Shown: one piece after another, positions 1,585 through 22,037 of the stretch | How positions within the stretch are numbered: position 1 is the stretch's first letter | Layout of the letters: each line of letters starts with the position of its first letter | Virus record (IMG/VR): IMGVR_UViG_3300020403_000062 | Span: 1 to 28,257 of that record | Direction: 5' to 3' (one strand) | DNA: 28,257 nucleotides | Origin: a virus | Lineage: Duplodnaviria; Caudoviricetes | The notes under the pieces: model-generated | Told to the model about the DNA's origin: nothing | Database searches by the model: none | What the model saw: the letters and a program-made list of their open reading frames with translations, nothing else | Made by a program: the position numbers and the translations under genes

Positions 1585-1619
1585 TGTTTTAATTCCCGTT
1601 AAAGTTATGCGATTTGTCC

Positions 1620-2912: not shown

Positions 2913-2960
2913 ATTAAATGCTCCCGTAGAAAATGCGGGCTGGAATTAGCCCGTAAGGGT

Positions 2961-3825: not shown

Positions 3826-3862
3826 CGTTTATAACTCCCGTAGTTTGTGAACGATACCCCCA

Positions 3863-5148: not shown

Positions 5149-5610
5149 CTACTTTGCGTGCAGCTCGTAGACCTCTGCCACTCTTGCTCTACGCTTCACC
5201 CGTTTATCACGGATGCTGACAATCTCTTTAGTGAGGCCACAGACATAACGTCTGCCCTGCACTAATTGCCAGTGCCAGCCTGCCACAACGAGGAATACGC
5301 TTTTGGCATCCCTGTCTTTGACAGAAGCTTTCAACCAACCGGCCAGCGTGACACCGTCCGTCCGATTGAACTTAACGTCCCAGTAATGCCGGACATCCCT
5401 CATTCGGATACCGTTCATGTGCAGGACATCCATCAGCTCGGTTTTGCCAGTACCGGTAATCATGCGGCGGCCGGTAACTCGTCTGAGCTGGGCGGCGGCC
5501 TCACCGGTTGTCATGCCGGTGATTGCGCTGATTACGGCTGGCCCACAAAAGCGGTTTTTATCCCGCTTGGATGAGCCGTGGTTGACAGGCTTGATGCGAA
5601 GATTGGTCAT
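5149..5610 (-). CDS. Basic protein with possible papain-like/C39 peptidase Cys-His motifs (153 aa)
   Basis: FCGPAVISAITG and a downstream HWQLV resemble the C39 motifs DCGxAxL and HF/WVV; ACTACGGGAGGG RBS. Confidence 0.6.
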   Translation of the reverse strand: MTNLRIKPVNHGSSKRDKNRFCGPAVISAITGMTTGEAAAQLRRVTGRRMITGTGKTELMDVLHMNGIRMRDVRHYWDVKFNRTDGVTLAGWLKASVKDRDAKSVFLVVAGWHWQLVQGRRYVCGLTKEIVSIRDKRVKRRARVAEVYELHAK

Positions 5611-5688
5611 AAGACCCTCCCGTAGTTATTAACAATAAGAAACAGCGATACCCATTTTGGGTATTGGGGCACCTCCAACAGGGGCCTC
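5611..5688 (-). promoter_or_regulatory. Structured 5' leader with three boxes complementary to the 9696-9764 RNA
   Basis: mRNA-sense CCTGTTGGA (5682-5674), ATCGCTGTTT (5649-5640), ACTACGGGA (5626-5618); two hairpins. Confidence 0.7.
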
Positions 5689-6868: not shown

Positions 6869-7051
6869 TTAGGGGCAGAGATATTGGGATCGGCTAGTTA
6901 AAACTTTCTCTGCCCCTAAAAAGCAAAAAGACCGCTGAGTGCGGTCTTTTCTTTTATACGAGCCTTTGCCCTTTTTGGTTTTTATCACCTGCATCTTAAA
7001 CCGTGGTTCGCGGATGGGGATTGGATTTCTGTGTTTAATGGCACGTTTCAT
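6869..7051 (-). CDS. arfA: ArfA-like alternative ribosome-rescue factor
   Basis: EPRFKMQVIKTKKGKGSYKRK aligns with E. coli ArfA [21 protein letters not shown]; GAGGA RBS before ATG 7051 (alternative start 7066). Confidence 0.75.
   Translation of the reverse strand: MKRAIKHRNPIPIREPRFKMQVIKTKKGKGSYKRKDRTQRSFCFLGAEKVLTSRSQYLCP
6926..6950. terminator. Bidirectional intrinsic terminator inside the arfA-like ORF
   Basis: AAAAGACCGC-TGAGT-GCGGTCTTTT with T-tracts on both strands, between convergent operons. Confidence 0.8.
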
Positions 7052-7274
7052 TTTCGGTTTCCTCATATTCAGCCGCGATACGAGCACCGCTGGCCATGCA
7101 TGACGTAATCATGCCGATGGCTGTTGTGCTGTCTGGCGAGCTGACGATGAGGCGGAACACGATTGCAGTGAGCATACCACCAAGCACGGCACCGGCGTTG
7201 AGGTCTTCGTCCATCATTTGATCAATAAGGGCGTTTATCTCATCACCAGCTCTGTCGAAGTCTGTTTCGCTCAT
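7035..7274 (-). CDS. Hypothetical phage protein (79 aa)
   Basis: ATGA-coupled to the upstream gene. Confidence 0.75.
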   Translation of the reverse strand: MSETDFDRAGDEINALIDQMMDEDLNAGAVLGGMLTAIVFRLIVSSPDSTTAIGMITSCMASGARIAAEYEETENETCH

Positions 7275-8201: not shown

Positions 8202-8232
8202 CTTTTACTCCCGTAGTTAAGGTTGTTCATTT

Positions 8233-8261
8233 TATATATCTTATATTATCCTATATGTCAA
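8233..8261 (-). promoter_or_regulatory. Sigma70-type promoter
   Basis: TTGACA-N17-TATATA; spacer is TATAGGA-taa-TATAAGA; the TGA of the -35 is also the endonuclease stop codon. Confidence 0.8.
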
Positions 8262-9619
8262 GCGCGGTTACTCCAGCGCACTTCGCCACCGTTCATTAAA
8301 GGTGTCTTCAGCGCATCTTTCACAGACATACCGGCGGCAAGACGGCGGCTTACTGTTCCTGCGCCGATACCATGAGCTCTGGCCGCTTCGGCGAGCGAGC
8401 GATACCCCAATTTCTTCGCCTGCTCTAAGCGGTTTTGTGTTTCTGGTGGGGGGTTCCACCCACACGATTGCCCATCGCCTACTTTTGTGGTGAGGGCTTG
8501 TTCGATAGACCACCCGCTGTTTCTGACCCGTGAGGCGACTAGTTTTGGGTTTGCCCCAAAGGCCCGTGAAGCGTGGGTCATGGACTTATATTCGACACCA
8601 AAGGCGGTAACGGTTTTTAGCGGCTTATTATAGGGCGTGATCCGCGGTTCTATTTCCAAGGCTTGTTCGACGGGCCAGTTCAGCACCCGTATGCGCCGAC
8701 TGGCTGTCGAATAATCTACCGTACCGAAGTAGTCGCAAGCATCTTTTAGTGTGGGGAAGATTTTCCCAGAAACGGATATGTCGGTTATTTTACGGCAGGA
8801 AAACTTGGTTAAGCCGTGTTCTTTTTTTAGAAGGTAGAGGGTGTGCTTGGCCATACCGTATTTTTCTGTGATTTCGTCGTCGGTTGACCCACTTTTAACA
8901 TCTTCAATTATCTGTTGGCGGGTGGTGTCGTCGTATTTGACCATCATTTCGGCGCGGGTTTTGGTTGCCCCCGCCCGTTGCAGGATGCGGTTTATAGTAC
9001 CGCGTCCGACACCATACTTTTCCGCCAGATCTTCGGTGGTAATCCGGTCACTGGTGTAATCGTCTATAATCGCCTGTTCCTTTTCCTCAGACAGTTTAAC
9101 GCCGTAACCGCCCATCGGTGCACCGACTAGGCTGTTCAGGAAAACAACATCGGGGAATGCCTTCTTCATTTTTGCAATCAGTGCAGTTTCAAAGGGCGCA
9201 ATCCGTGATGCGCGGTATTTTTTAGGAAATACTTTAAAAGAGAAGCAGTCTTCATGGTCTTGCATTGCCTCGAACATGAAGCGGTCGCGCTTATTCACGC
9301 CGTTAGACCCTTCGTTTTGGGCTTTTCTTACGTGTTGTTTGAAGCGCAGGTTGGGGTCAGTGCTTGACCCAACATAAAGGCCGGTCTTTTCGCCGTGCAC
9401 AATTAAGACATATAATTGGCTGTCGCGCTCAGAGTGGCCGGTCATTTCCGCAGGAGTCAGACATTTAAGGCCAAGCTTTCTGCCCCAGTTACGCATGATG
9501 TCGTAATCATTGTTGGACAGCCCCCTGTTGCGGCAGGCTTGCCGAATAGACAGCCTATTTTTTGCCGCATACTTGTACATCTCGCGGACTTGTATGTTAG
9601 AAAATTTTCTAAATGGCAT
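8258..9619 (-). CDS. Free-standing GIY-YIG homing endonuclease-like protein with multiple HTH repeats (453 aa)
   Basis: SQLYVL..GLYVGSS..RFKQH..E..N catalytic pattern; repeated HTH-like units (LAEKYGVGRGTINRIL, ASRAFG..SRVRNSGWSIEQAL, AARAHGIGAGTVSRRL); TACGGGAG RBS before ATG 9619. Confidence 0.8.
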   Translation of the reverse strand: MPFRKFSNIQVREMYKYAAKNRLSIRQACRNRGLSNNDYDIMRNWGRKLGLKCLTPAEMTGHSERDSQLYVLIVHGEKTGLYVGSSTDPNLRFKQHVRKAQNEGSNGVNKRDRFMFEAMQDHEDCFSFKVFPKKYRASRIAPFETALIAKMKKAFPDVVFLNSLVGAPMGGYGVKLSEEKEQAIIDDYTSDRITTEDLAEKYGVGRGTINRILQRAGATKTRAEMMVKYDDTTRQQIIEDVKSGSTDDEITEKYGMAKHTLYLLKKEHGLTKFSCRKITDISVSGKIFPTLKDACDYFGTVDYSTASRRIRVLNWPVEQALEIEPRITPYNKPLKTVTAFGVEYKSMTHASRAFGANPKLVASRVRNSGWSIEQALTTKVGDGQSCGWNPPPETQNRLEQAKKLGYRSLAEAARAHGIGAGTVSRRLAAGMSVKDALKTPLMNGGEVRWSNRA

Positions 9620-9660
9620 ACTTTTCTCCCGTAAAAAAGTGCAGATGTTTTTGTACTTAG

Positions 9661-9689
9661 ATAATATCTTATAACATCTCATATGTCAA
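9661..9689 (-). promoter_or_regulatory. Sigma70-type promoter for the endonuclease
   Basis: TTGACA-N17-TATTAT; spacer is TATGAGA-tgt-TATAAGA. Confidence 0.8.
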
Positions 9690-9695
9690 GTAATG

Positions 9696-9764
9696 AAAAG
9701 CCCCCAGAGCCTGTTGGACACTCTGAGGGCTTTTACTACGGGAATTGCAACCATCGCTGTTTGC
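9696..9764 (-). ncRNA. Putative ~70-nt trans-acting antisense small RNA
   Basis: Own promoter (9771-9799), 5' hairpin TGCAA/TTGCA, single-stranded TTCCCGTAGT, terminator GCCCTCAGAG..CTCTGGGGGC-TTTT; no ORF; three segments complementary to phage leaders. Confidence 0.7.
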
Positions 9765-9770
9765 ACATTC

Positions 9771-9799
9771 TATATAAGACATTATGGGGTAAAAAGCAA
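9771..9799 (-). promoter_or_regulatory. Promoter for the putative sRNA
   Basis: TTGCTT-N17-TATATA; TATAAGA-cat-TATGGGG boxes at 9773-9789. Confidence 0.65.
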
Positions 9800-11346: not shown

Positions 11347-11487
11347 TCAAGCGTGGGTCTTGCGCCAATGCTCCCACATCATGCGGAGTTGTCCGCTGAT
11401 GGTTCGGCCCTCAGCCTTTGCCATCCTCTTAATCTCTTCATATACCTCAATCGGCACGAGAACAGATTTCCATTTAGTTATATCCAC
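11347..11487 (-). CDS. Ribbon-helix-helix (Arc/CopG-like) DNA-binding protein (46 aa)
   Basis: GTG start after GGAG; WKSVLVP strand, IEVYEEIKRMAKAEG helix, RTISGQLRMM helix. Confidence 0.75.
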   Translation of the reverse strand: MDITKWKSVLVPIEVYEEIKRMAKAEGRTISGQLRMMWEHWRKTHA

Positions 11488-11521
11488 AGGTTTTCTCCAA
11501 GATGTTGTGTTTATATAAGCG

Positions 11522-11550
11522 AGGATATAGGATATCTTGTAGAGATGCAA
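11522..11550 (-). promoter_or_regulatory. Promoter of the RHH gene
   Basis: TTGCAT-N17-TATCCT, overlapped by a TATAGGA box (11526-11532). Confidence 0.6.
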
Positions 11551-20615: not shown

Positions 20616-21535
20616 TCGAACAGGCTTCCAAGTCCAACTTGGCTAGCCATTGTCTTACCTGTACCTGCGATCTGATCAAGAAAGTTTTTCTGTTTCTGTG
20701 TGCTAGATCTGCCACCAGTAGACGCTGAAGTATACGTGTTACCTCGTCTAGCTAAGTTGCCTTTGTATGTAGTTTGACCGGGCAAGGTTCCAAATACGTT
20801 TTGCACGGTGTCTAGAAAAGCAACATCTGTGGTCGGAGCTGTTGTAGCCTGCGGGTTGTTCACGCCGGAAGTAAGCGCATCCATAACCCTATTTTGGTCC
20901 AAGGAGCCAATGCCCTGTTGGTTAACACTAGAGGTGTTGAAGGGCATACTGAAATTCAAACCAACACCTTGATTTGCTGGATCAAAGGTGGGAGTTAGTG
21001 TTCCGGGCCCTAAATCAACACTTAATGGGTTTACGTTCTGTTGTGTGGGTGGACTGTAAGTGTTTACGTTCGCAGCAGGAGCCATGTTTATCATATCTGC
21101 CATGGACGGCAGGGAAGTTACACTAGGAAGCTCCGTGGTGAAGGAAGCCGGAGTAAGGGTCGACACGTTTTGCTGAGGAGTAACATTAGCTAAGCTGTCT
21201 GGAACTCTTGCCCCAAAAAGATCGCCAAGGCTAGGCGCGTTTTGTGCATTTGGCGGCGGAGCGGAGAAATCTTGTAAGCCCCGTTTTGCCTCTAAAGAAT
21301 CCTGAGCGGCTCGATTAACTATGTTAAGCGTTTCTTGCTTAGTAGGCGGAGCCGGTCTACCCCGTTTAGGTTCTTGGGCCGCGGCTTTTTTATTTTGCTT
21401 AGAAGGTGACTTGCCACCGCCACCACCGCTGTCACCACCACCGTCACCACCAAAGCAGTAGAACTTGGCTTCAAACTCGTTCAGGTGATCAAAATCTTGG
21501 TTAAGGCCGTCCGACCAACGCTTTTTATACAGCAC
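20612..21535 (-). CDS. Low-complexity probable internal virion/ejection protein with CFGG-polyGly motif (307 aa)
   Basis: FYCFGGDGGGDSGGGGGK at residues 25-42; Pro/Ser/Thr/Gln-rich; G(I/L)GSL motif shared with the C-terminus of the 1182-aa protein. Confidence 0.6.
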   Translation of the reverse strand: MLYKKRWSDGLNQDFDHLNEFEAKFYCFGGDGGGDSGGGGGKSPSKQNKKAAAQEPKRGRPAPPTKQETLNIVNRAAQDSLEAKRGLQDFSAPPPNAQNAPSLGDLFGARVPDSLANVTPQQNVSTLTPASFTTELPSVTSLPSMADMINMAPAANVNTYSPPTQQNVNPLSVDLGPGTLTPTFDPANQGVGLNFSMPFNTSSVNQQGIGSLDQNRVMDALTSGVNNPQATTAPTTDVAFLDTVQNVFGTLPGQTTYKGNLARRGNTYTSASTGGRSSTQKQKNFLDQIAGTGKTMASQVGLGSLFD

Positions 21536-22037
21536 AGCAATATCTCCTCACATCAAGTTCGGACTGTACTCCTGTTGCGTAGCCCAACCTTTTACCCAGA
21601 GCCTGACGGATAAAATTGGCCCCATCTAATGGATAGCTTTCAATGTAGCGTTCCGTCAAAACCTTTTGTACAAATCTACCTACTTTTAATGCGTTGTTAT
21701 ACGGTGCTATGAAATCTATCACGTATAGCATACCATCATCAGGACCGTTGCTCCAGATGTCTGAAGTTAATTTTTTAGACCCGTCTTTATAACCCGCCTC
21801 TTGTTCTTTGTTCAGAAACGCATATGAGAAAAGGCCCGTGGGCCACGCTTCCTTGTGCGCTTTCTCCTTAACGTCGCCATAGTCGTACATGACAAGAAGC
21901 TTGTCTTCTTTTAGTGCAGGTATGACCAGCCGTTCAAGGTCATGCAAAAACCAATCACGGTGCATTTCAGACTGTAACATCAGCTCAATAACAGCCGGTA
22001 TGTTAGATGACACTTTGTTAGAGCAGACGCAACTCAT
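21525..22037 (-). CDS. RTX toxin-activating lysine acyltransferase (HlyC/TAAT)-like protein
   Basis: LMLQSEMHRDW..VIPAL, PTGLFSYAFL..E..Y, DIW..G, YVIDFIAPY match HlyC SPLHRNW..VLPAI, PVAYCSWANL..E.KY, DW.SG, WFIDWIAPF. Confidence 0.85.
   Translation of the reverse strand: MSCVCSNKVSSNIPAVIELMLQSEMHRDWFLHDLERLVIPALKEDKLLVMYDYGDVKEKAHKEAWPTGLFSYAFLNKEQEAGYKDGSKKLTSDIWSNGPDDGMLYVIDFIAPYNNALKVGRFVQKVLTERYIESYPLDGANFIRQALGKRLGYATGVQSELDVRRYCCAV

Follow-up and report, generated by a model that had tools for sequence, protein, structure and literature searches.

What does a short stretch with a promoter and a terminator and no open reading frame do in a phage genome, when its central word is the complement of the ribosome-binding sites (RBS) of the phage's own genes? 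The window, i.e., the whole stretch of DNA analysed (28,257 bases, the entire record), is a phage fragment that encodes DNA polymerase A, helicases, primase and the small terminase subunit. Its DNA polymerase is 51-56% identical to the counterparts in DSL-LC04, 023Pt_psg01 and Pelagibacter phage HTVC023P and, because of this level of identity, the window phage is, as judged by its polymerase, a distant relative of the HTVC023P-type marine podophage group. An earlier note drew attention to an ORF-less unit of about 70 nt driven by a promoter, TTGCTT-N17-TATATA, and described three exposed parts, each complementary to one and the same leader. The unit and its surroundings comprise the following features.

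9771..9799, minus strand: sigma-70-like promoter of the predicted sRNA (TTGCTT at 9799-9794, 17 nt, TATATA at 9776-9771), predicted from sequence
9696..9766, minus strand: predicted sRNA, ORF-less, ~70 nt, start at ~9766-9764, called from sequence, folding and homologous units
9753..9762, minus strand: 5' box in a weak hairpin, complement of 5640-5649, in near-identical relatives only
9735..9743, minus strand: seed UCCCGUAGU, predicted unpaired, directly 5' of the terminator, antisense to a common RBS tag, complement of 5618-5626
9696..9734, minus strand: intrinsic-terminator-like hairpin and U tail; its loop, 9718-9710, is the putative second contact, complement of 5674-5682
9661..9689, minus strand: TTGACA promoter of the next early unit, immediately past the sRNA terminator

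The coordinates given for the promoter and the unit hold, with the qualification that a stricter promoter scan did not list TTGCTT-17-TATATA. By sequence and folding, the hallmarks of a trans-acting sRNA are present: a promoter, an unpaired seed, an intrinsic terminator and no ORF. The predicted fold consists of a weak hairpin at the 5' end, an unpaired linker and the terminator hairpin (-30 kcal/mol, z -3.27). In the predicted ensemble, the unpaired probability is ~0.98 for the seed and ~0.95 for the core of the terminator loop, as expected of exposed segments; the 5' box, also said to be exposed, is partly paired and only partly single-stranded. Neither the window nor 10 related loci contain an Rfam match at gathering score, and matches at E up to 10 are weak and fall in unrelated families only; the earlier note had not recognised the sequence as that of the C4 or the CI family. 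The possibility that the unit is a plus-strand RBS was considered and rejected, as a start codon at usable spacing is absent.

The seed matches a tag, ACUACGGGA, that lies over the RBS of six genes in the window.

9627..9635, minus strand: tagged RBS, 7-nt match; GIY-YIG/HNH-type endonuclease gene, probable start 9619
8209..8217, minus strand: tagged RBS, 9-nt match; 117-aa gene, start 8201
5618..5626, minus strand: tagged RBS, 9-nt match; gene 5149-5610
3836..3844, minus strand: tagged RBS, 9-nt match; 64-aa gene, start 3825
2922..2930, minus strand: tagged RBS, 8-nt match; DUF932-like gene, start 2912
1591..1602, minus strand: tagged RBS, 9-nt match shifted 3 nt; DUF7227 gene, probable start 1584

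Six of the seven minus-strand occurrences of ACGGGA precede an ATG (starts 9619, 8201, 5610, 3825, 2912 and 1584), and these tagged starts rank 1-5 and 7 among 65 starts bearing a Shine-Dalgarno (SD) sequence when ordered by duplex energy with the seed. The idea of one target leader, that of gene 5149-5610, is not supported: the central box also matches the RBS at 9619, 8201, 3825, 2912 and 1584. A TTGAC-type promoter match is found no more than 140 nt from five of the six tagged genes, and the tag is absent from the replication, terminase and virion genes of the window. The tagged set is called early because of these promoters and its position; from these we infer its timing.

Several other features of the window deserve mention. 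The endonuclease gene (8258-9619, GIY-YIG/HTH/HNH-type) directly follows the sRNA, and close relatives have other genes at that spot. A short ORF at 6869-7087 has a Pfam match to the ribosome rescue factor ArfA above cut-off, over 24 residues, and 21525-22037, amid large virion-type genes, matches the Pfam HlyC-type acyltransferase family. A ribbon-helix-helix gene is located at 11347-11550. An operator-like word, TATG(G/C)GA or its complement, occurs 10 times in the first 12 kb but once in the last 16 kb, mostly at promoters (positions 767, 1606, 2975, 3867, 5709, 5814, 6330 and 11295).

The unit is not confined to the window. Loci gathered with the target protein, the polymerase, the DUF932-like protein and the seed pattern as queries yielded 114 seed-plus-hairpin hits, of which 25, mostly backwards-read tagged leaders or unrelated contigs, were removed by eye and seed class; the 89 that were kept represent 57 distinct promoter-seed-terminator units, all in related marine podophages and placed 0.3-2.5 kb past the polymerase gene. 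Among 45 DNA-polymerase loci with at least 2.6 kb downstream, 33 carry a unit that passes the filter; the 12 misses include four with a seed and a terminator recognizable by eye, four whose terminator loop contains a word resembling the seed and one with such a word 45 nt upstream, and three of the 45 (L229, L239 and L266) show no unit. In L254, L269, L273 and L274, the anti-RBS word sits in the terminator loop rather than the linker, ~400-650 nt past the polymerase gene.

A TTG..N16-18..TA pattern lies upstream of the seed in 56/57 units at a lenient cut-off (7/12 or better, run without a control); in 12 of these 56, the -10 box is only 7-8 nt from the seed, and the 5' part of the unit ranges from almost nil to ~30 nt. 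TTGAC comes after the terminator in 43 of the 57. One seed is common to 37 units, and in each genome the seed has 3-10 predicted target genes. The two genomes with terminal repeats contain seven and five sense copies, respectively, and exactly one reversed copy each; three other genomes have 2-3 reversed copies. No cultured member of the family was found among the unit-bearing relatives, and an exact search of viral contigs for the seed plus the loop word returned 0 stretches. The cultured phages HTVC023P (L350) and DSL-LC04 (L351) have their own start-associated words before early genes and a reversed copy is absent from either whole record (9+0 and 3+0); tags can therefore exist without a mirror. 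The 17-letter search pattern also recurs 2-5 times per metagenome contig in what is an unrelated repeat array, often 105-225 nt apart (L394:450-1036; L375, L381, L409 and L424).

If the reversed word acts on the tags, the two should change in step. The 22 units with TCCCGTA seeds accompany 121 ACGGGA-type RBS vs 2 of the TACGGAG type, and the 13 units with other seeds accompany 3 and 31, respectively; these counts come from related genomes and are not independent. Moreover, on a quick polymerase tree the division between the main seed types comes down largely to a single event, which counts against the sRNA reading. Three genomes (L251, L272 and L214) have seed variants of their own, each matching its own RBS; these seeds were picked beside terminators before the full listing of RBS. 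In a cross-matrix of 11 seed types and genomes, 18 perfect 8-nt matches are cognate, the off-diagonal mean is 0.14 per cell, and the permutation p is ~1e-5; five of the 11 genomes (L243, L265, L269, L254 and L273) lack a perfect 8-nt cognate match and either depend on G-U pairs or have a weak match. The L265 seed matches its own RBS weakly even when G-U pairs are allowed, and those of L237 and L243 fit their own RBS only via G-U pairs. A wobble-bias count over 113 and 34 tag sites gave 19 C-to-T and 9 T-to-C changes. Across the lineages compared, seed and predicted tag change together. The commonest seed resembles what we take to be the complement of a 16S stretch; 16S rRNA was rejected as the target because the seed tracks the phage RBS rather than a constant target.

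As a sequence element, the unit is thus real, conserved and covarying, and it probably encodes an sRNA that acts in trans to keep an early regulon from being translated. It would be a stand-alone gene for an RNA of 45-75 nt whose unpaired seed complements a private tag overlapping the SD sequence. The host RNA polymerase would make this RNA alongside its targets; upon accumulation, the RNA would pair over the tag and the SD and exclude the ribosome from the tagged set, and the ensuing shut-off would end the early phase, making the unit a delay timer. In some lineages, the terminator loop may form a kissing contact with a hairpin loop that certain leaders have 25-60 nt upstream, strengthening the capture; in the window sub-lineage there is a third match, with a putative role, over the boxA-like word in the main early leader. 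The switch from early to later phage genes is usually assigned to proteins; if the proposal is true, a widespread marine phage group has an RNA-only timer for this step.

The same pairing could serve another end: by silencing incoming phages that share the tag, it would confer superinfection exclusion or support a carrier state, with the seed variants as immunity types. The seeds are indeed lineage-specific in the cross-matrix, and a 4-nt difference in C4 RNA is, in the available part of one report, enough to limit P1/P7 cross-action (PMC5320573). This use of the RNA is nevertheless unlikely: with one seed shared by 37/57 units, diversity is poor for an immunity code, and the phage's own genes are targets anyway. 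A tyrosine integrase was not found in five related records, of which four are at least 90% complete; this result speaks for a lytic timer rather than for immunity.

An alternative that does away with RNA-RNA pairing treats the tag as a protein-binding site, on DNA or mRNA, or as a translation enhancer, and the reversed copy as an operator or a relic. The sites of one regulator would covary too, the ribbon-helix-helix gene could encode such a protein, and two cultured relatives have tags without a mirror. We nonetheless regard this alternative as rather improbable: the tags occur on one side only and keep a fixed place at the RBS, the reversed copy lies between a promoter and a terminator without an ORF or in a terminator loop, and the operator-like word found at the promoters, mostly in the first 12 kb, is a separate one. 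The L237 and L243 seeds, which rely on G-U pairs, and the loop-to-leader matches, which require RNA geometry, also speak for an RNA that pairs with its targets, as an sRNA would.

How much do the other two boxes add to the seed? Their complements lie in the leader of gene 5149-5610, arranged as follows.

5723-5695, minus strand: promoter TTGACA-17-TATATA of the main early leader, called from sequence
5674..5682, minus strand: loop word of the 5' hairpin of the main early leader, complement of the sRNA terminator loop
5629..5664, minus strand: hairpin 5664-5648, then the boxA-like word 5647-5629; contains the 5'-box target 5640-5649
5149..5610, minus strand: 153-aa protein with a predicted papain-like (C39-type) cysteine peptidase fold, invariant C22 and H113

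The predicted structure of the 153-aa protein (pLDDT 92.5) aligns to 6mpz with Z 9.3 and rmsd 3.3 over 122 residues and to 8brf with Z 9.6; the best E in support of the C39-type reading is 3.5e-3, and comparison of the protein sequence to solved structures found nothing useful. Among the matches listed, most of the 79 relatives of the protein have unrelated upstream sequences, and the peptidase-like protein is therefore dispensable to the proposed circuit. The word 5647-5629 resembles the consensus of boxA and is a putative site of that kind. BoxA is an antitermination signal, according to the part of PMC12360218 available. A hairpin plus a boxA-like word, one such site before a tagged RBS, occurs in 18 of 31 related units; since the bare boxA-like pattern is also found 16 times on the opposite strand, the argument rests on position and not on the pattern. 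The presence of this arrangement in one early leader per genome suggests the use of host antitermination factors.

The three exact, non-collinear complements in this leader that the earlier note had reported were found at 5640-5649, 5618-5626 and 5674-5682. A shuffled control, which that note had called for together with covariation in relatives, was run with the seed fixed and the rest of the unit shuffled: in 4/20,000 shuffles, a post hoc figure, both extra boxes (at least 9 nt) found their complement in one and the same leader out of the six that carry the tag. Across the family, the boxes fare differently from the seed. The 5' box is present in 2/57 distinct units; the loop word TCCAAC is present in four, the same four that have the leader word CTGTTGGAG downstream, a count to be read with the short downstream DNA of many of the 57 in mind. 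A targeted search recovered seven distinct unit-plus-leader pairs in the lineage of the window. All seven keep the loop word and the leader word together while both the terminator stem and the leader stem vary; the 5' box is kept in four near-identical pairs and missing in three, in one of which (L408) its target word is intact. In relatives, then, seed and tag covary and loop and leader words persist, and the 5' box does not follow. In L408 and L276, the leader sits before a different gene; the regulated object would therefore be the leader cassette.

Loop-to-leader matches are also seen outside this lineage. A TTGCCC terminator loop goes with GGGCAA hairpins before the tagged RBS (11/13 units vs 5/17), and the TTGCCC-loop group has loop-leader matches of 9-10 nt that differ between its sub-groups. 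The match of the loop beats shuffles in 6/27 units, and that of the 5' part in 3/27, two of which belong to the sub-lineage of the window and one of which is a promoter match; a generic 5' box across the family was rejected on these numbers. From the shuffle results and the lineage pairs, a lineage-specific, optional second contact via the terminator loop, probably loop-loop pairing, is credible, and the 5' box is, in the genomes compared, a local feature of the sub-lineage of the window. What survives of the switch initially proposed would be a trans-acting antisense sRNA that covers the RBS and makes a terminator-loop contact; the three-point design is not supported, the seed alone being conserved.

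The same results weigh on the idea that the unit is a three-point switch devoted to the leader of gene 5149-5610, where it might in addition mask a boxA-like signal for antitermination. The rarity of three matches in one leader (4/20,000), their retention in 4/7 lineage pairs and the coverage of a conserved boxA-like word by the 5' box all argue for it. However, the four pairs are near-identical, a sister sub-lineage lacks the 5' box even where the target word is intact (L408), a different gene follows the leader in L408 and L276, and the seed has five further targets, making a dedicated switch quite improbable. Chance, or a relic of inverted RBS copying beside an ordinary terminator, is barely credible: the words are short and the unit is known from sequence alone, but its place is kept across polymerases 71-97% identical with changing flanks and it tracks the tag through several variants.

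The unit that we favour as an sRNA for the early regulon has partial counterparts among known systems. P4 CI RNA, like the C4 RNA of P1/P7, is a small structured phage RNA that acts via short single-stranded boxes. C4 RNA pairs antisense over an RBS and, in the portion of the source available (PMC5320573), is phage-encoded, ~70-80 nt long and active in trans on the phage's own mRNA via short boxes, as predicted here from sequence; one box covers the RBS and an upstream box provides specificity, an arrangement predicted from sequence for the window's lineage and the TTGCCC-loop group, with a loop match that beats shuffles in only 6/27 units. By contrast, the window unit has no Rfam match, and in place of the three stem-loops (P1-P3) of the C4 cloverleaf it has one weak hairpin, a linker and a terminator. 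C4 RNA is processed by RNase P; the unit has its own promoter and terminator, an anatomy that suggests a primary transcript. The unit addresses 3-10 unrelated genes through one tag, and, while C4 belongs to a temperate immunity region, tyrosine integrase was not found in the five related records.

The start-associated sequences (SAS) of cluster K mycobacteriophages offer a second parallel. Their role was stated to be unknown in 2011 and 2024, in the passages available (PMC3203893, PMC11373665, PMC12699233), and the 2011 cluster K paper describes, in its available part, one reversed SAS copy in four K1 phages. As with the tag, the SAS described there is an asymmetric word a few bases before the starts of a subset of genes, in one orientation and extending beyond 16S pairing; as with the seed, a single reversed copy lies away from gene starts. 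The word is a different one (the 13-bp SAS consensus is not matched) and the phages are unrelated; furthermore, the reversed copy here is in a promoter-terminator unit and covaries, and antisense RNA is not proposed for SAS in the cited passages. In Anaya, the reversed SAS (L353:29850-29905) lies in the gap between genes 96 and 97, where a hairpin is predicted (z -3.98) whose 10-nt loop holds the word; this gap is gene-free and conserved, matching 182 phage records. Of eight phages aligned, three share the loop word, Anaya, Adephagia and Mdavu (also L359:437 and L356:438). The remaining five have a different loop word, and one of these, Pixie, does carry SAS sites. The K1 reversed SAS in a hairpin loop is a lead rather than a result. 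It is conceivable, if somewhat doubtful, that phages tag the RBS of a gene class and silence that class through a single micro-gene in mirror image, with loop-loop contacts adjusting the effect on each leader, and that the same logic explains the K1 SAS. If true, SAS, open since 2011, would have a function testable in cultured mycobacteriophages on M. smegmatis, co-regulated gene sets would be readable from phage genomes, and natural orthogonal seed-tag pairs would be at hand for synthetic translation control.

Among other phage sRNAs, one of the PreS type reportedly acts on host functions, to go by the title of the report (10.1101/2024.10.31.621285). The literature searched, with most subscription papers outside the search, holds no description of an sRNA made by a phage against an RBS tag that several of its genes share; the searchable part of the supplement of PMC10690425 does not contain the seed words, and the sRNA may be among the unnamed candidates there. 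The unit would thus represent a form of phage antisense control for which no earlier description was found. Multi-target trans-acting sRNAs of bacteria combine a seed with an intrinsic terminator hairpin and a U tail. The phage unit resembles them in its seed, terminator, U tail, several targets and predicted RBS occlusion, and differs from them in what it would silence: the phage's own early genes, which bear an evolved address tag.
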